Positions 33,838-64,000 of a stretch of 64,000 nt of DNA are shown here, piece by piece. Origin of the DNA: an uncultured Bacilli bacterium (GTDB lineage Bacteria > Bacillota_I > Bacilli_A > RF39 > UBA660); the NCBI GenBank assembly GCA_934096275.1, contig CAKOLK010000001.1, forward strand, positions 79,876 through 143,875, given 5' to 3'. The notes beneath the pieces were generated by a model. It saw only the letters and a program-made list of their open reading frames with translations. It ran no database searches and was not told the origin of the DNA. Each line of letters opens with the position of its first letter. The first letter of the stretch is position 1. A program made the position numbers and the translations under genes.

Positions 33838-33928
33838 AGTATCACTTCCTAAATTGTTAAATATTATATAATATGAAATATAAAATGCAAATAAAAAAAC
33901 TAACTACTTCTAGTTAGTAATATTCATA

Positions 33929-34013
33929 TGGTGCGGGTAAAGGGACTTGAACCCCCATGGATCACTCCGCTAGATCCTAAGTCTAGTGCGTCTGCCAATT
34001 CCGCCATACCCGC
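33929..34013 (-). tRNA. tRNA-Leu (anticodon UAG), type II with long variable arm, CCA encoded
   Basis: The reverse complement folds as a cloverleaf. Anticodon stem CTAGA/TCTAG with loop CTTAGGA. T-loop GGTTCAAGTCC. Confidence 0.9.
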
Positions 34014-34016
34014 GTA

Positions 34017-34093
34017 TGGTGGACCCTGTAGGGCTCGAACCTACGACCTCCCGGTTATGAGCCGGATGCTCTAACCAACTGAGCTAAGGGTCC
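34017..34093 (-). tRNA. tRNA with CAU anticodon, most like tRNA-Ile2 (lysidine) rather than elongator Met; CCA encoded
   Basis: GGACCCTTAGCTCAGTTGGTTAGAGC 5' half (Ile-like). Anticodon loop CTCATAA. T-loop GGTTCGAGCCC. Confidence 0.85.
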
Positions 34094-34191
34094 ATTGCTT
34101 ATTAATAATATCATATTATTTTTAATAAATCAATATGTTTTAAAATTTTTTTAATTTTTTTGCAAAAATGTTTAATACAAAAGAAATAGAA

Positions 34192-42653: not shown

Positions 42654-42677
42654 AAAAAAAAAGGACTTAGAGTCCTA
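42654..42677 (-). terminator. rho-independent terminator after CDS 42741..44210
   Basis: AGGACTCTAAGTCCT hairpin followed by T8 on the minus strand. Confidence 0.7.
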
Positions 42678-42740
42678 ATTGCTAATCTTATTTTCTACTG
42701 CTCGCCGCAAGATTTTACCTTGCAGGCTCGCTCAAATCAC

Positions 42741-44210
42741 TCAACTGATACTAAGCATATACGGTTTTTGAGAAGTCCCTTCTTCACCTGAAATCTTTAC
42801 GTTAGATGATAGATAAAGGACTGGGTACACGGCATACTCGCCGTCGCTGACGTTGCCGCGATTGTAATGGACATAGCCAGTCGAGGTCACATAGAAAGCG
42901 TAGAGGGAATTGCCAGACCACTGCGGAAGTAACCATGTATTTACACTTTTATCTAACCAATTATTTGTTGTTTTGCAACTTGCTGAACCATCATATTCAT
43001 ATAAGTTGCTTGTACATTCTTTTGATGCTGCATATCCATAATCACTTGCATACATTAGTGCTATCTTTTTAGATGCATCATTTTGCATTATAGGGTTTGT
43101 TCCATAATAGTAACCTGTTCTATTTGCTTCATTCTTTCTCTCATATTGCCATATTACATCTGATCTCATTTTTGAATCACTATATCCTCCAAGATAATAC
43201 TTTGTTGTACCTATCATATTTTGTGCATCAGTACTTAATGTATTATAATAATCATCATTTAAAAATGTATTTAATGTTCCTGTTACCCAATTATTATATG
43301 AACTAGTTGCAGTATCTTGTGTTTCATTCCATATTATATCTCCAATAGATTCATCTTTTATTATTTTAAATCTATTTTCTACGTTACCATCTGTATCTTC
43401 AGTTGGTATTACTCCAATTATTCTCCATACTTCATTATTAAATGTTACATAGTTCTTTACTACTGAATCTCCTCCACGATATCTATATTCTGTTGCAAAC
43501 TTACTGTCAACTTGTAATGTATCATCTATTGTATGAGTTATTTGTTCTAATCCATTTTGTCCTACATTTGCTTGTGCAAACTCTGTCGCAGTTAATCCTT
43601 TAACTGGTGCAGCTTCATTATTAATATTTACTCTAAACTTATAAGAATATTTCTTTTCATTAAGTTTAGTTGTATCTACACTCTCATCAATCCAAGCTCT
43701 AAGTCTATAACTTGTTACTATTTCACCTTTATTATTTGAAAATATTTCTTCTTTAGAACTTAAAACTTTATTATTTAACTTTTCTATTGTTGTAGGTTCT
43801 ACTACTACTGTCTCTACTCCATTTTCTACTTTAGTAAGATATACCTTTATTTCATTATCATTTAAAGGTGTTTCTACTGTTAATGGTTCTAAAACGATGT
43901 TGTAATTTAACTTTCTTTGTGTATCATCATTTGCTCTTGTTTTAATATAAGATAATACTTTAAAATCAAAGTAATTAGTTAATACCTTACCTTCACTATC
44001 TTTAATAGGCAATGCATTATTCATACCTATTTCATTAGACTCACTATAACTCATTTTTACTTGTCCTGATTGTATTGTGTTTGAGCCAGCTAATAAATCG
44101 TTTGCAGATGTCCATATTGCATATGTTCCTAAAGATACTAGTGCTATACTAAATAATGATAAAGATATCATCATTAGTATTTTCTTTTTATTATTTTTCA
44201 TGTTTAACAC
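42741..44210 (-). CDS. secreted modular surface protein: TasA/SipW-type signal peptide, beta-rich N-domain, DUF1566-like lectin-fold C-domain with a G+C-rich hypervariable-looking end
   Basis: Signal LGTYAIWTSAND. The N-domain is paralogous to 54711..55874 and the C-domain to 57289..58317. See findings. Confidence 0.7.
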   Translation of the reverse strand: MLNMKNNKKKILMMISLSLFSIALVSLGTYAIWTSANDLLAGSNTIQSGQVKMSYSESNEIGMNNALPIKDSEGKVLTNYFDFKVLSYIKTRANDDTQRKLNYNIVLEPLTVETPLNDNEIKVYLTKVENGVETVVVEPTTIEKLNNKVLSSKEEIFSNNKGEIVTSYRLRAWIDESVDTTKLNEKKYSYKFRVNINNEAAPVKGLTATEFAQANVGQNGLEQITHTIDDTLQVDSKFATEYRYRGGDSVVKNYVTFNNEVWRIIGVIPTEDTDGNVENRFKIIKDESIGDIIWNETQDTATSSYNNWVTGTLNTFLNDDYYNTLSTDAQNMIGTTKYYLGGYSDSKMRSDVIWQYERKNEANRTGYYYGTNPIMQNDASKKIALMYASDYGYAASKECTSNLYEYDGSASCKTTNNWLDKSVNTWLLPQWSGNSLYAFYVTSTGYVHYNRGNVSDGEYAVYPVLYLSSNVKISGEEGTSQKPYMLSIS

Positions 44211-44901: not shown

Positions 44902-45705
44902 TTAGATTCTATTATTATTTGATTTTTTTTGAAATAGTATTAAGAATATTCCTATTACTACTAATGTACCTAGTAATACATATACCAATATCATTGTATA
45001 ATTAGTTTCTTTTTTATTATTATCTGGTTCTTTTGGATCATCATCTTTATTATCACTAGGATCTGTATTTGGAGTATCATTTTTACTCTCTTTTACTTTT
45101 AAATTAATTCTTAAATCGTTATCTATATAGTTGTTTCTTGTTACAACCCACATGTATTCATTACCATTTACTATTTCAGCATTATGAGATGTAACTTCAT
45201 AGTAATCACTTACTTTTACTAATACTTTTACTTCTTCAAGAAGTTTATATGAAGTAAATGCATACATATTTTTAAGATTTAATTTTATTTCATTGTTACT
45301 ATTAGTACATTTAAAAGTAGTAGCATTCATATTAGGAACATAAGAGTTTTGATACTCATCTTTATTGAATCTATAAGTAAATGTTGCTCCTTTTTCATTT
45401 GTTTTATTTATATATTTAATTGTATAAGTACCAAGTCCAAAATCATTGTTATCTTTATCATCTGATGTTGATATATCTGCACCAGTTGTATTTATAAAAG
45501 CAGATTGTTCTAATTGTGGTAATGCTTGAAAATAGTCTTTCAATACGGTACCACGATATATTTGATTATTATATTCATCACTATCATCACTATAGATATA
45601 TGTTTCTTCTTTTATTGATGATTCATCTATTTCTATTGTATAGTTTGCTTTGCATCCACATAATAAGAATGGAATTAGTAATAAAATTAAAAACTTTTTA
45701 TTCAT
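44902..45705 (-). CDS. lipoprotein with C-terminal TM anchor
   Basis: Lipobox LLCGCK. D/K/P-rich linker, then a C-terminal hydrophobic helix. Confidence 0.55.
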   Translation of the reverse strand: MNKKFLILLLIPFLLCGCKANYTIEIDESSIKEETYIYSDDSDEYNNQIYRGTVLKDYFQALPQLEQSAFINTTGADISTSDDKDNNDFGLGTYTIKYINKTNEKGATFTYRFNKDEYQNSYVPNMNATTFKCTNSNNEIKLNLKNMYAFTSYKLLEEVKVLVKVSDYYEVTSHNAEIVNGNEYMWVVTRNNYIDNDLRINLKVKESKNDTPNTDPSDNKDDDPKEPDNNKKETNYTMILVYVLLGTLVVIGIFLILFQKKSNNNRI

Positions 45706-47414
45706 TAATCACACGCCCCTTTTAAGTCTACATATTTAGCAGGATCATCCACTGTATTATTTTTTAGTATTTCAAAATGGATATGTGGTCCGGTTGATCC
45801 TCCAGATGAACCTACTTCTCCAATTTTTTGTCCTTGTTCAACATGATCTCCTTCTTCAACAATCACTTTAGACATATGTGCATATTTTGATTTATATTCT
45901 CCATCCCCATGTTGTATTAAAACATATGCACCATATCCTACAGTAGCATTATAGTTTTTAGAAACTTGTATTACTTCTCCTGCAGCACTTGCTATTATAT
46001 CTGTGCCCATTGAACATCCTAAGTCTGCTCCATCATGAGTTATCCATCTTTTATAAATTGGATGGAATCTTGGGCCTTGACATCCTGTTACTGAACAGAA
46101 TGTTGGACTAGGATATATCCAAGTACTATTAAACGATGTACAAGTAGTTTTTACACTATCTTTTCTACTCATAATATCATCATAGTTATAATCATCATAT
46201 TCTGCTGATGTAAATGTTTTGGCTTTATATTCTGGCGCTATTGTATAGTCTCCAGTTACAAATAGTGTAAATTCTGCTTTTCTTCTTCTTTGAAGTCCAA
46301 GAAGTCCACTGTTGGTACATTTTTTCATAACACTCCATAGTCCTTCATAACTATCTTCTTTATATGCAGTTGCCATATCAGAAAACATTCCTGCACATCC
46401 ATTATAAAGCATACTAGTAAGTGCATCTTCTTGATAATTAGTAAGATTTACTCCAGAAAAGAATCTTTTTACTCCTGCTCTTTTTGTTTCTACTGCTTTA
46501 ATTTCAAATGGTCTTACTTCACTTACTGGTATACAATCTCCTACTTTCATATCTTTTATATAGTCAGTTGTAATACCATGTCCTACAGTTACTCTATCTC
46601 CTGAATTTTGATATACTTTATACTCAGTTTTTTCTTTATCACAGTATTTTGCTCCTTCAAAAGTATATATAAAGTTTAAAAGATCTTCTTGAGTTTGTTC
46701 AGATGAACAACTATTACCATTTGAGGCACCACCTGCAAAAATAGCAAATATTATTATAAATAAAATTATAAATATTAAAACTACTCCAAAAGCAATTATA
46801 CCAAGTTTTAAAGAAAGAGGTAATTTCATAAAGAAACTAATTATACTTTTTTGGATTTCTTCTTTAGTTTTAGTTTTAGGATCTTTACTTTTTCCTTTTA
46901 ATAATCTTCTTTTTTTAGTTTCTTTATTATCTATAGAACTTTTTATATTACTTGATTCATTTTTTTCACTCTTAGTTTCTTTATTGTCATCTTTATCCTT
47001 GCTGTCTTTAGTATTATCATCTTTTTCATCTTCATTATTCTTATTTTTTTTATTTTGCGCTTTATTATTTATGCCTCTTGCTAGATTAGTGGCATTATTA
47101 ATATTTTTGGTTGCTTTATTACCCATTTGATTTAAGGCATTTCTTGTTTCATTAGGATCAGTCATTTTATCGTTTAAGTCTTCATTATTTCCCATATTAT
47201 TAGTCATATTATTTAATCCATTTAATGAATTATTAGCAAGATTTACAGCATTAAGACTTTTATTAAAGAAGTTACTATTATTTTTATTTTGTCCTAAATC
47301 AGAATTATTTTCTTTATTTTCTACTTCTTCTTGTTTCTTATTTTTTATCTCTTCATTATTATCTTTATTACTATTTACTTTTTGTTCTTCTTCCATGACT
47401 TCACCTACTTCCAT
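45705..47414 (-). CDS. membrane-anchored bifunctional peptidoglycan hydrolase (lysozyme-like domain + M23 peptidase)
   Basis: N/K-rich disordered N-terminus and one TM. Phage-lysozyme-like segment (YTFEGAKY, VTVGHGIT, NYQEDALTSMLYN). M23 motifs HDGADLG and GPHIHFEI. Confidence 0.75.
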   Translation of the reverse strand: MEVGEVMEEEQKVNSNKDNNEEIKNKKQEEVENKENNSDLGQNKNNSNFFNKSLNAVNLANNSLNGLNNMTNNMGNNEDLNDKMTDPNETRNALNQMGNKATKNINNATNLARGINNKAQNKKNKNNEDEKDDNTKDSKDKDDNKETKSEKNESSNIKSSIDNKETKKRRLLKGKSKDPKTKTKEEIQKSIISFFMKLPLSLKLGIIAFGVVLIFIILFIIIFAIFAGGASNGNSCSSEQTQEDLLNFIYTFEGAKYCDKEKTEYKVYQNSGDRVTVGHGITTDYIKDMKVGDCIPVSEVRPFEIKAVETKRAGVKRFFSGVNLTNYQEDALTSMLYNGCAGMFSDMATAYKEDSYEGLWSVMKKCTNSGLLGLQRRRKAEFTLFVTGDYTIAPEYKAKTFTSAEYDDYNYDDIMSRKDSVKTTCTSFNSTWIYPSPTFCSVTGCQGPRFHPIYKRWITHDGADLGCSMGTDIIASAAGEVIQVSKNYNATVGYGAYVLIQHGDGEYKSKYAHMSKVIVEEGDHVEQGQKIGEVGSSGGSTGPHIHFEILKNNTVDDPAKYVDLKGACD

Positions 47415-54710: not shown

Positions 54711-55874
54711 TTATTCAGTTTCAAAAGCATAATATGCATAATGATAAACTTGCCCTATTTCTTCAATACTCTTATCAGAATACATTCGCCCTCTTACCAT
54801 TAAGTGTAATGTATAAATACCACCCGCATTATCTATATCTTCTTGGGTTATTGTTGTATCTATTAATTCAAAATCTCCAGGTGTTTTTCCAAAATCCGGT
54901 TTATTCTGACTTATCCAATTTAATTCTCCTTGAGGATTACTAGTTGTTGTTATATCATAATCTATTGATAAAGCCATCGGAAGAGGTACCCCAGCTTTTT
55001 GTTCCTCATTCAAAGTATAAAAGTTATATATTATTCTGGTTGGTTTTGTAATCTTATAATGTCCTAAACATTGATCATATTCAGTCACAGAGCTATCATC
55101 ATTTGTACGAGTAAACTTACATGAACTATTATCACTCAATGTAGTTGATTGTATTTTTCTACCATAGACACTTATATCTTGTGTTGTTGAGTAACCTGTA
55201 CGAACAGTTACAACATGCTCTTCCATTGGTTCAACTGGTTCAGTTGAATTATTACTATTATTATTTATATTTACTCTAAACTTATAAGAATATTTCTTTT
55301 CATTAAACTTTGTTGGATCTACTTTGCTATCTATCCAAGATCTTAATCTATAACTTGTAATTACCTCACCTTTATTATTTGAGAATATTTCTTCTTGAGA
55401 TTTTAGAATTTTATTATTTAATTGATCAATTGTTGTTGGTTCAACTACTACTGTCTCAGTTCCATTTTCTACCTTAGTAAGATATAACTTTATTTCACTA
55501 TCACTTAAAGGATTATCTACAGTTATTGGTTCTAGTATTATGTTATAATTTAGTTTTCTTTGAGTACTGTCATTTGCTCTAGTCTTAATATAAGACAACA
55601 CTTGAAAATCAAAATAATTAGTAAGTAATTTACCCTCTTCATCTTTTATAGGTAATGCATTATCCATTCCTATTTCATTTGATTCAGTATAACTCATCTT
55701 TACTTGTCCTGTAGTTATACTATTATTACCAGTAAGTAGTTCACTACTCCATATTGCATATGTTCCTATCGATATTATTGCTACCATAAATAATGATAAA
55801 GATATCATAAGTAACACTTTCTTTCTATTAGGACTAGTTAGTTTTTGCCTCCCACAATTCGAATATTTGTTCAT
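54711..55874 (-). CDS. secreted surface protein, paralog of the N-domain of 42741..44210 with a different C-domain
   Basis: Start at MNKYSN (55874) after a GGAGGA RBS. Signal IGTYAIWSSE. About 190 aa are highly similar to 42741..44210. Confidence 0.65.
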   Translation of the reverse strand: MNKYSNCGRQKLTSPNRKKVLLMISLSLFMVAIISIGTYAIWSSELLTGNNSITTGQVKMSYTESNEIGMDNALPIKDEEGKLLTNYFDFQVLSYIKTRANDSTQRKLNYNIILEPITVDNPLSDSEIKLYLTKVENGTETVVVEPTTIDQLNNKILKSQEEIFSNNKGEVITSYRLRSWIDSKVDPTKFNEKKYSYKFRVNINNNSNNSTEPVEPMEEHVVTVRTGYSTTQDISVYGRKIQSTTLSDNSSCKFTRTNDDSSVTEYDQCLGHYKITKPTRIIYNFYTLNEEQKAGVPLPMALSIDYDITTTSNPQGELNWISQNKPDFGKTPGDFELIDTTITQEDIDNAGGIYTLHLMVRGRMYSDKSIEEIGQVYHYAYYAFETE

Positions 55875-55965
55875 ATTTTTTTCCTCCTTCTTTTTAGACA
55901 ATAAAAAAATACCTTGTCTACTTTTAATGTAAATTAATTATATAACATTTTCAGGTATTTTTCAA

Positions 55966-57288: not shown

Positions 57289-58317
57289 TTAATTAACACT
57301 TAGTTGATATGGATCAGAACTTGTACCAGAGCCACTTGATATTTTTACATTGGATGATAAAGTTAAAACTGGACGTGTTGCATATTCACCAGCATAAACA
57401 TATTTTAAATTAAACACACGTCCTAAAGCAATAACAAATGTACCATTAGAACTATTTGGAATTTGAAATAAAAGCCACTCATAATTATTTTTAAATATCC
57501 AATTATCTTGTTTACATTGAGTATAGCTATAATAATCATATAATGTAGCAGTGCATTCCTTTGATGCTGCATATCCATAATCACTTGCATACAACAGTGC
57601 TATTTTTTTACGTGCATTATTTTGCATTACTGGGTTTGTATCATAATAATATCCTGTTCTATTAGACTCATTTTTTCTTTCATATTGCCATGCAATATCA
57701 GTAGTAATACTAGGACTATAATATCCTCCAAGATAATATTTTGTTGTTCCTACCATATTTCGTGCATCAGTACTTAATCTATTATTATAATAATTATTAT
57801 TAAAAAAAGTATTTAAAGTAGCAACAGTCCAATCATTAGTACCATTTTCGTTCCAGATCATATCACCAATAGATTCATCTCTCATTATTTTAAATCTATT
57901 TTCCACATTGCCAGAAGTGTCTTCAGTTGGTATTATTCCTATTATCCTCCATACCTCATTATTAAACGTTACATAGTTATTTACATTTCCTCCACGATAC
58001 CTATACTCTGTCTTAAATCTTTCATCTACTTGTAATGTATTATCTATTTCATGTGTTATCTCTTCAAGTCCATTCTTTCCTACATTATCTTTTGCAAACG
58101 CTAAAGCATCTTTTTCAGTTTTAACACTAAGTTTTAATATATTTTTTGATTCAACACTACTACTCCATTTTGCATAAGAACTATTCGTATAATTATAAGA
58201 AATAATACCGCTAAGTAATAACACAAAAATACCTATTAATGATAATAGATACTTATTATATTCTTTTATATCTTCAAATAAGGGGTTTATCTTTCTAGTA
58301 TTTTGCCCCCCCCCCAT
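57289..58317 (-). CDS. DUF1566-like lectin-fold surface protein, paralog of the C-domain of 42741..44210, with a G10 tract at the start codon
   Basis: TM/signal with SSYAKWSSS. About 85% nt identity to 42960..43600 by eye. No obvious RBS before the ATG. Confidence 0.6.
   Translation of the reverse strand: MGGGQNTRKINPLFEDIKEYNKYLLSLIGIFVLLLSGIISYNYTNSSYAKWSSSVESKNILKLSVKTEKDALAFAKDNVGKNGLEEITHEIDNTLQVDERFKTEYRYRGGNVNNYVTFNNEVWRIIGIIPTEDTSGNVENRFKIMRDESIGDMIWNENGTNDWTVATLNTFFNNNYYNNRLSTDARNMVGTTKYYLGGYYSPSITTDIAWQYERKNESNRTGYYYDTNPVMQNNARKKIALLYASDYGYAASKECTATLYDYYSYTQCKQDNWIFKNNYEWLLFQIPNSSNGTFVIALGRVFNLKYVYAGEYATRPVLTLSSNVKISSGSGTSSDPYQLSVN
58306..58315 (-). repeat. homopolymeric G10 (C10 on the plus strand) tract fused to the start codon
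   Basis: ATGGGGGGGGGGCAA on the coding strand. Confidence 0.95.
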
Positions 58318-62923: not shown

Positions 62924-62979
62924 ATAATATTTATTTTAATTTAAGAACCTGTCTCAACAGAGCAAGACTTCGAAAGACC

Positions 62980-64000
62980 CTAAGCACCAGAGTTGACAAG
63001 GACTGCGCGGGCGGAGTAGTTAGTGTGAGCGAGACCGCCGATGTTGTTGAAGTAGAAGACACCGGCGCGAGCACCATCATTGTAGCGCCCGCCGCGCAGA
63101 AACCAAGGGTTGCTAGAGTTCACGAAGTAGGCGTCATCTGAATACCAGTTACCACTTGTTCCTGTAGGTGCCATTTCTTTTGTTGCATCTCCTAGTTTCC
63201 CTCTTGTGTATTGCATGCTACTTGTTCCATAACTATATTTATCATAATATTTCTTACTTGGGAACGCATATGTTCCTGTAAATGATGTACCACCATCTAA
63301 GATTCCTGTAAATGATGAGTTATTATTATTTAAAGTTGAATATCCGCTCATTTGTTGCCCGTTACTATATACCATGTTACCCATCATATATTCCCATGAA
63401 CCACCACTCATATCATATACTCCATATACATTTCCTGTTGTTGATGCGCTTTGTCCTAATGTTGTTGTATATGAATTACATGTTGTACCACTACTTGTTG
63501 AGCCTTCACTTTGTGGTCCACATCCTGTTGTAAATGTACCTGCACTATTTATTTCAACTTCTTTATTTATCCCGTATTTACTATGTGATAGGTATGTTAC
63601 TGCTCCCCATTCCATGTTCTTCATCATATGAGTTTCATCAGTTGTACTAAATCCATATTTATTTCCAGATTCTCTCATCTTTTGGATTCCATTAAAGAAT
63701 GTTCCTACTTGTGCTCCTCTCCATGATATTACATTTGGTTTTATCTGAGGTCTTATTGTTTGTAAGTTACATCCTGATCCAACTATTACTTGATTTGATG
63801 CTGTACATGCAGTATCACTTGATACTTCAAACTTACCTACCCATATTCCTGTTAATTCTTCATTTTCTTCTCTTACATTGTTGTCATTTTTATCCCACCA
63901 GAATGCTGGATGTGTATATGTAGAAGTTCCTGCTTTTAATCCTCCATTTGTTGTATCTGTACATGTTTCTGATGTACTACTAGTACCAGTAACATTATCA
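62980..64000 (-). CDS. FGE-sulfatase/C-type-lectin-fold surface protein, 5' end beyond the right window edge, with a G+C-rich hypervariable-looking C-terminus
   Basis: My translation shows the minus-strand frame of ORF 62980..63678 stays open to position 64000 (..IWVGKFEVSS..ISWRGAQVGTFF..). Motifs EWGAVTYLS, GVYDMSGGSWEYM and LRGGRYNDGARAGVF. Confidence 0.75.
   Translation of the reverse strand, partial: DNVTGTSSTSETCTDTTNGGLKAGTSTYTHPAFWWDKNDNNVREENEELTGIWVGKFEVSSDTACTASNQVIVGSGCNLQTIRPQIKPNVISWRGAQVGTFFNGIQKMRESGNKYGFSTTDETHMMKNMEWGAVTYLSHSKYGINKEVEINSAGTFTTGCGPQSEGSTSSGTTCNSYTTTLGQSASTTGNVYGVYDMSGGSWEYMMGNMVYSNGQQMSGYSTLNNNNSSFTGILDGGTSFTGTYAFPSKKYYDKYSYGTSSMQYTRGKLGDATKEMAPTGTSGNWYSDDAYFVNSSNPWFLRGGRYNDGARAGVFYFNNIGGLAHTNYSARAVLVNSGA

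Follow-up and report, generated by a model that had tools for sequence, protein, structure and literature searches.

A G+C-rich hypervariable patch in a surface-protein gene of an uncultured gut Bacilli bacterium: a candidate remote target of a diversity-generating retroelement

We analyzed a stretch of 64,000 nucleotides from an uncultured Bacilli bacterium (GenBank assembly GCA_934096275.1, contig CAKOLK010000001.1, positions 79,876 to 143,875 of the forward strand; the whole stretch is called the window below), and in particular a short G+C-rich patch near the 3' end of a gene for a secreted or surface protein, P0001. A first-pass annotation made from the sequence alone had proposed that this patch is the variable region of a gene targeted from a distance by a diversity-generating retroelement (DGR). 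P0001, which has an exact match on three public contigs, consists of an N-terminal signal or transmembrane segment followed by a beta-rich module of about 200 amino acids (aa), and of a head of about 285 aa that is predicted to be DUF6273-like. The following features were found at the locus:

42741..44201, minus strand: target gene 1, an open reading frame (ORF) for the 486-aa secreted or surface protein P0001
42816..42935, minus strand: candidate variable region 1, TGG TTA CTT CCG CAG ... CCA GTC CTT, with fixed scaffold codons interleaved with NNY codons
42825-42920, minus strand: hypervariable codons of variable region 1, NNY codons between scaffold codons
42698..42733, minus strand: conserved bulged hairpin GAGCGAGCCTGCAAGGTAAAATCTTGCGGCGAGCAG, directly 3' of the stop codon of target gene 1
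42654..42676, minus strand: terminator-like stem and T-run AGGACTCTAAGTCCTTTTTTTTT, read directly from the sequence and expected to end the transcript of the target gene

The patch (42817-42929, minus strand, near the 3' end of ORF 42741-44210) contains 55.8% G+C against 26.4% in the window, in line with the earlier estimate of about 55% in AT-rich surroundings. Segments of 113 bases have a mean G+C content of 26.4% with a standard deviation of 5.9%, which places the patch approximately five standard deviations higher, and only three stretches of the window exceed 45%: two tRNA genes (33897-34124), this patch and a second patch at 62925-63219. On the coding strand the patch is poor in A, as had been noted before (17.5% vs. 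43.9% in the remainder of the gene). The reported number of 19 NNC codons also holds: the third bases of the 38 patch codons are C in 19 cases, T in eleven, G in seven and A in one, so that half of the codons end in C, compared to 18 of 451 (4%) in the remainder of target gene 1. This anomaly of composition is far beyond chance.

A search identified 1915 homologues of P0001; the identity figures refer to the best 120, which are 70–87% identical to it over the full length. These sequences originate from human-gut assemblies, and the genome collection contained four copies of the patch, found in metagenome-assembled genomes (MAGs) titled 'uncultured Bacilli bacterium' from Hadza samples. Copies of the P0001 family occupy at least five distinct chromosomal contexts, and their neighbors include genes for germination, spore coat and peptidoglycan synthesis. 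At the amino acid level the patch follows the pattern WLLPQ x S xx S xx AF x V x S x G x V xxxxx V xxx E x AVRPVL, of which 88 distinct versions were found in 114 homologous proteins. The C-terminal domain of the family is nearly invariant away from the patch, and the hypervariability coincides exactly with it.

The codon pattern was determined for 11 distinct DNA copies with 216 variable codons. The third base of these codons is C in 124 cases, T in 87, G in two and A in three, i.e. 211 codons (98%) are of the NNY type; the first base is A in 74, G in 68, T in 59 and C in 15 codons, and the second one is A in 97, G in 62, T in 45 and C in 12. The resulting residues are Y, N, S, G, D, F and V; there are no stop codons at these sites, and none can arise. 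Scaffold codons (CTT CCG CAG, TCC, GCT TTC, GTG, TCG, GGC, GTC, GAG, GCC GTG CGC CCA GTC CTT) are the same in all 11 copies, synonymous sites included. The mean pairwise identity among the DNA copies is 84.6% upstream of the patch, 65.6% in its core and 81.6% downstream. Judged from these sequences, the 98% NNY pattern looks like the product expected from adenine mutagenesis of AAY codons in a template, and the patch would be G+C-rich because the scaffold avoids A and the randomized A positions gain G and C.

The abrupt change in composition could also be attributed to a horizontal transfer of the patch from a donor with a higher G+C content, or to an assembly chimera. We reject this explanation, to which we assign practically no likelihood, as at least 11 copies, spread over five or more chromosomal contexts and many samples, have this scaffold, the patch keeps the reading frame and is an integral part of the structure of a conserved domain, and there is no similar DNA in the phage collection, where BLAST with the patch yielded chance matches only. 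A chimera in particular is unlikely because the independent assemblies carrying the gene give an identical patch sequence.

The change between strains could be followed at one locus present in two samples (L151 and L148), where the gene has an RNase J gene on one side and CotZ spore-coat genes on the other. The flanks of this locus contain one difference in about 950 bases (about 0.1%); the gene outside the patch contains 59 differences in 1359 bases (4.3%), 25 of them at codon position 3; and in the patch 22 of the 93 bases are changed, always at codon position 1 or 2 and never at position 3 (Fisher p = 5e-14, patch compared with all remaining aligned positions). Pairs of proteins that are 97–99% identical outside the patch can be as little as 45–64% identical within it. 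Between-strain variability had been named by the first-pass annotation as a test of its proposal, and the result speaks for it, since the patch varies at codon positions 1 and 2 only and the flanks are nearly identical. The N-terminal half of the target gene is itself a hotspot of divergence between L151 and L148, probably due to recombination among paralogues.

Identical patches were also observed behind differing upstream sequences (L130 vs. L131; P0016 vs. others). As they were, and as most clusters of homologues keep one patch, the sequences suggest that rewriting is episodic and that recombination also shuffles genes of the P0001 family. One can ask whether such exchange accounts for the entire variation, that is, whether cassette-type gene conversion or recombination among scattered paralogues operates under diversifying selection and with no retroelement at all. 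This would agree with the identical patches and 3' flank behind differing upstream sequences, with the fact that the whole gene diverges more than its flanks and with the different lengths of the copies, but it leaves unexplained the pyrimidine ends of 98% of the variable codons, the complete absence of differences at codon position 3 between strains, the identity of the scaffold at synonymous sites and a G+C content of 55% within a genome of 26%. Moreover, A+T-rich paralogues are unfit as donors, and we consider this explanation very improbable. One such paralogue is found in the window:

57289..58317, minus strand: A+T-rich paralogue of the DUF6273-like head which, like another A+T-rich paralogue (L004), has neither the variable-region signature nor the post-stop hairpin

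This paralogue is 76.5% identical to target gene 1 over the 600 bases upstream of the patch, 44.7% across the patch and 58.7% over the last 75 bases, and its stretch corresponding to the patch has 29.5% G+C. The loss of similarity across the patch described in the first-pass annotation was found again, while the identity of about 85% given there for the upstream part proved too high.

The fold of the head was predicted from a diverse alignment of the C-terminal 286 residues, resulting in a confident model with a predicted local distance difference test score (pLDDT) of 92.7 and a predicted template modeling score (pTM) of 0.93; a full-length model made from closely related sequences (pLDDT 45) was unusable. 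The C-terminal model matches the IgA peptidase of Thomasclavelia ramosa (9qa6, E = 1e-5), the N-terminal domain of which is described as DUF6273, as well as many phage DUF6273 proteins (E = 1e-7 to 1e-3, probability 1.0) and a receptor-binding protein; its matches to classical C-type lectin domains are weak. The patch maps to the strands of a beta-hairpin (model residues about 222–264). In the literature DUF6273 is described as C-type-lectin-like and as a target of DGRs, its C-terminus being the site of the variable region. With the Pfam profile of DUF6273 (PF19789, cut-off 23.5 bits) the protein from the window scores 10.6 bits (E = 0.52), below the threshold, and its homologues P0012 and P0018 score 20.7 and 19.4 bits over profile positions 19–171 of 172, also below the cut-off. 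The model thus points to a DUF6273-like head in target gene 1, and the C-type-lectin-like fold anticipated for the C-terminal domain is supported by it. Membership in DUF1566, to which the protein had been likened, was rejected: there is no Pfam match at E <= 10, and the fold matches to DUF1566 phage proteins have E >= 0.13 only. Likewise, the proposed TasA signal finds no support in profiles, as neither Pfam nor NCBIfam gave a match of P0001 to TasA/camelysin or a SipW-cognate signal; the N-terminus (KKK, a hydrophobic stretch, GTYAIW) is TasA-like by eye only, and the full-length model has low confidence there. No sequence relatives were found in PDB.

A profile of 52 patch-1 segments was compared with 1.84 billion representative proteins and retrieved mini-ORFs from other organisms that resemble templates of DUF6273-type targets; P0343 was the best of them. 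On its two contigs (L146 and L147) the variable region is followed by 66 bases and the stop codon, then by the bulged hairpin CTTCCCTGCAGGGTGAAATCCTGCGGGAAG, about 100 bases and the template, the latter lying about 130 bases downstream of the related target. From GCN TTC onward this template has AAY codons exactly at the variable sites of the window family, and the scaffold codons TCG, GGY, GTC and GCC GTN CGN CCA match one to one. Fifteen of the 20 mismatches between the template and the variable region are at adenines; the two contigs, compared over 563 bases, differ from each other at 13 positions only, all of them template adenines. These loci show that a target architecture of the patch-1 type is served by a DGR. 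The template of L146/L147 was also considered as the own template of the window family and rejected, as its scaffold codons differ.

The hairpin at 42698-42733 occurs once in the window, and similar ones were found in other loci only after genes with a variable region. It has the same shape, bulge position and loop as the hairpin of L146/L147; the folding energies are -8.1 kcal/mol (z = -2.5) for the hairpin from the window and -11.1 kcal/mol (z = -5.0) for that of its relative. Its sequence and position suggest that it is probably a target-site element of this class of DGRs. Some variable-region copies have no post-stop hairpin. In a comparison of L128 and L138, a hairpin module of about 50 bases that follows the stop codon is found in one and cleanly missing from the other, with the same flank (TAAGATTAGTAATTTTAAAA), i.e. 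the module behaves as a unit of insertion or deletion.

The second G+C-rich patch of the window (62925-63219, 61% G+C) forms the C-terminus of a surface-protein gene running off the window end. This gene, its patch and a further gene with a common N-terminal module are located as follows:

62980..64000, minus strand: target gene 2, 3' part; the full gene (662 aa, P0121) extends beyond the end of the window
62998..63135, minus strand: variable region 2 in the second G+C-rich patch, with a template match on contigs L141/L142
54711..55901, minus strand: third gene with the common N-terminal module (74% identity to P0121) and with an unrelated C-terminus that is not diversified

The P0121 family is hypervariable at the codons of this patch as well, its proteins reading GNWY x D x A x FV x S xx PW..RGG x Y xx GA x AGAF x F xxxx G x A x T xx SARAVL. 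With a designed asparagine-rich template peptide as a query, we found mini-ORFs (for example, MDANFVNSNNPWVMRGGNYNNGANAGAFNFNNNNGNANTNNSARAVLLGFGALD) on gut-metagenome contigs of 0.5–1.5 kb. Variable region 2 differs from the template on L141/L142 by 19 mismatches in 132 bases: 16 of them at the 39 template adenines and three at the 93 other bases (Fisher p = 1.2e-7). This distribution identifies 62998-63135 as a DGR variable region. On contigs L144 and L145 the order of the cassette is as follows: 3' end of the target, a 7-bp hairpin with a GAA loop, a structured spacer of about 320 bases, the template, about 290 bases and a gene for a 117-aa protein with a MutS_I domain (Pfam MutS_I 35.1 bits at a cut-off of 20.6, E = 1.7e-8). 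In sequence this protein fits the MSL accessory class of DGRs. Both contigs stop at ATGAATGAATT and include just eight bases of the ORF after the MutS-like gene. Like the template for patch 2, the MutS-like gene is on sister metagenome contigs, outside the assembly of this strain. Patch 2 of the window is without an intact GAA-loop hairpin.

The spacer between target and template (L144 200-520; L141/L142) contains several strong hairpins, among them GTCAGTTCGGG...CCCGAACTGAC and CCAGTTC-GAA-GAACTGG, plus A/T-rich stems, and is conserved between assemblies. The end of L142 repeats its own start with a period of about 486 bases; template and variable region may be arranged in tandem there, or the assembly may have looped between them. 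On L139 and L140, spurious ORFs (P0289 and P0291) run over the template and are translated with TAG as an amino acid; the gene caller evidently picked an alternative genetic code for these tiny contigs, and the window uses TAG and TGA as stop codons. Contig L143 (ENA ERZ16268125 scaffold_14798) carries an unrelated DGR-like locus with a similar asparagine-rich template ORF adjoining a bAvd gene; genes for an integrase and an IS91-type transposase lie upstream.

The N-terminal module of about 200 aa is common to the three genes of the window at 42741-44201, 54711-55901 and 62980-64000, with 65–74% identity (65% between target genes 2 and 1, the heads of which differ). These genes bear three different C-terminal heads, two of them diversified. 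The sequences suggest module exchange inside one surface-protein superfamily, and because the module is shared by all three genes, the heads seem to be modules that can be swapped on a single stalk or anchor.

The template of patch 1 was sought by several approaches. Neither BLAST nor an adenine-tolerant scan, each run on the window and every fetched locus, gave such a template, nor did an IUPAC base-or-A pattern in viral contigs; in the metagenome scan a two-block pattern had five matches, every one a variable region. The genome scan gave no matches to a template-specific 5' pattern and four matches to a general 3' pattern, all of them variable regions. Since the latter pattern demanded CCAGTCCTT and the related template reads CCAGACCTT at this place, the genome scan might have missed the template; generally, the patterns demanded CCAGTCCTT or fixed AA codons, and the template may have escaped. 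Viral scans with further patterns (3' general, patch-2, hairpin, patch-2 template and two relaxed patch-1 template patterns) found nothing, and the designed template-peptide query retrieved templates for patch 2 only and none for patch 1. When adjacent templates were sought beside paralogues on short contigs, ordinary chromosomal contexts only were seen. One 32-base match to the template spacer near L137 was discarded, as it lies inside a Lon protease gene. The template contigs of this lineage are shorter than 1.5 kb and absent from MAGs; because such contigs are not binned, the patch-1 template may be missing from the MAGs as well. The absence of a reverse transcriptase and of a template repeat from the window, stated in the first-pass annotation, was confirmed by scanning. 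Of the pair that it had proposed to look for elsewhere, a patch-1 template beside a reverse transcriptase, neither was found in these searches; a proxy is provided by the patch-2 template with its MutS-like gene and by L146/L147.

Taken together, these data make it very probable that 42816-42935 is the variable region of a remote DGR target gene. The proposal of the first-pass annotation is supported here by the strain variation confined to the patch and by the DUF6273 fold. According to the proposed mechanism, the transcript of a template repeat from another part of the genome would be copied by the DGR reverse transcriptase, which misreads template adenines, and the mutagenized cDNA would replace the matching stretch of the target gene (mutagenic retrohoming). 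AAY codons of the template would become NNY codons in the target, and about 20 residues on the ligand-binding face of the DUF6273 (C-type-lectin-like) head would be rewritten, with the adenine-free, G+C-rich scaffold codons remaining fixed. The rewriting of template adenines and the adenine-free scaffold would account for an A-poor, G+C-rich patch in a genome of 26% G+C. We infer the patch-1 template, the reverse transcriptase and the role of the hairpin, as well as any present rewriting of the copy in the window.

Several observations weigh against this interpretation. The template for patch 1 was not found in the window, the fetched loci or the viral, metagenome and genome collections, and the reverse transcriptase motif is absent from the window and 30 related loci, the cassette contigs L144/L145 ending early. 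The hairpin is about 80 bases away from the end of the variable region, whereas described DGR hairpins are at 4–34 bases. The lengths of the patch vary between copies in 3-base steps, and third-base haplotypes vary too, even within one MAG; because of these differences one template cannot write all copies, and several template alleles or slippage on an (AAC)n run are required. One variable codon of the copy in the window is TGG, and TAC stands where the family has CGC; adenine changes alone can produce neither. In most clusters at 90% identity the patch is constant and the N-terminus is variable, and the patch of the window is the same in every assembly carrying the gene.

The same constancy could mean that the variable region is a fossil, written by a DGR formerly, while this copy or strain now evolves by ordinary mutation and recombination. 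The departure of the TGG and TAC codons from the family scaffold, the loss of the post-stop hairpin from some copies and the C/T differences at the third base of some variable codons would fit such a history. It seems to us a possible, though rather doubtful, course of events: the copy in the window retains its hairpin, the scaffold codons are still G+C-rich despite strong A+T pressure, sister loci have been rewritten between strains with 99.9% identical flanks, and the lineage has templates and an accessory gene.

Chromosomal DGRs with remote targets are known from Treponema denticola with seven non-adjacent targets and from Thiohalocapsa PB-PSB1 with 15 targets (PMC5758913, PMC10907252). As in these systems, the variable region would be at the C-terminus of a C-type-lectin-like domain, the targets are scattered through the chromosome far from the cassette, and the variable codons are of the AAY-derived (NNY) type. 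Unlike them, the host is an uncultured, spore-forming gut member of Bacilli with 26% G+C, two head families are found on one N-terminal module and the copies vary in length; the DUF6273-like and the RGG-motif head families would each need their own template. The DUF6273 head with a C-terminal variable region is shared with DUF6273 targets of gut phages (tentaclins; Faecalibacterium prophages Lelie, CP11, Roos and Pioen), but here the genes are cellular, multi-copy and located among housekeeping genes, with no phage context seen, and the Pfam DUF6273 score is below the 23.5-bit cut-off. The small MutS_I protein adjoining the template resembles MSL-type cassettes (Architecture D, Wu et al. 2018, PMC5758913), including the Legionella DGR; published MSL DGRs also carry avd (PMC5758913), which was not seen on the contigs of 1.2–1.3 kb here, and in contrast to the published cassettes this one is known from sister metagenome contigs and its reverse transcriptase was not seen. 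Finally, a G+C-rich inverted repeat 3' of the variable region that is conserved among targets is reminiscent of the target-site hairpin/cruciform of BPP-1 (Guo et al. 2011), and in the cassette of the patch-2 family a 7-bp stem with a GAA loop directly follows the variable region. In the family-1 hairpin, however, one base is bulged, the loop has 5 bases and the distance from the end of the template homology is about 80 bases, whereas published hairpins have a 4-base GRNA loop at a distance of 4–34 bases. Remote targets, multi-target genomes, MSL accessories and DUF6273 targets have all been published already; here there would be a combination of two head families on one module, many scattered copies and several templates.

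Two genes away from target gene 1, the window contains a gene (45705-47414) for a 569-aa protein with phage-lysozyme and M23 peptidase domains after a long low-complexity N/K-rich region.

As a tentative suggestion, which we would not call probable, one chromosomal MSL-type DGR with several templates might reprogram two ligand-binding heads of different structure, the DUF6273-like one and that of the 660-aa RGG-motif family. If so, the two heads on one N-terminal module at many loci would form a modular, retroelement-driven repertoire of surface receptors, and changes in the length of (AAC)n would add a second, indel-type axis of diversity. Independently of this suggestion, a remote DGR target can be detected without its retroelement, as a G+C-rich, A-poor and NNC-rich island in a very A+T-rich genome. 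DGR surveys based on MAGs would score this lineage as DGR-less, because its templates are on contigs shorter than 1.5 kb that are discarded by binning. The nearest solved fold is the DUF6273 domain of an IgA peptidase from a gut bacterium. This uncultured lineage of gut Bacilli seems to invest in diversifiable surface proteins, a large family with scattered members, which bears on how gut commensals may vary their adhesion or their exposure to phage and antibody.

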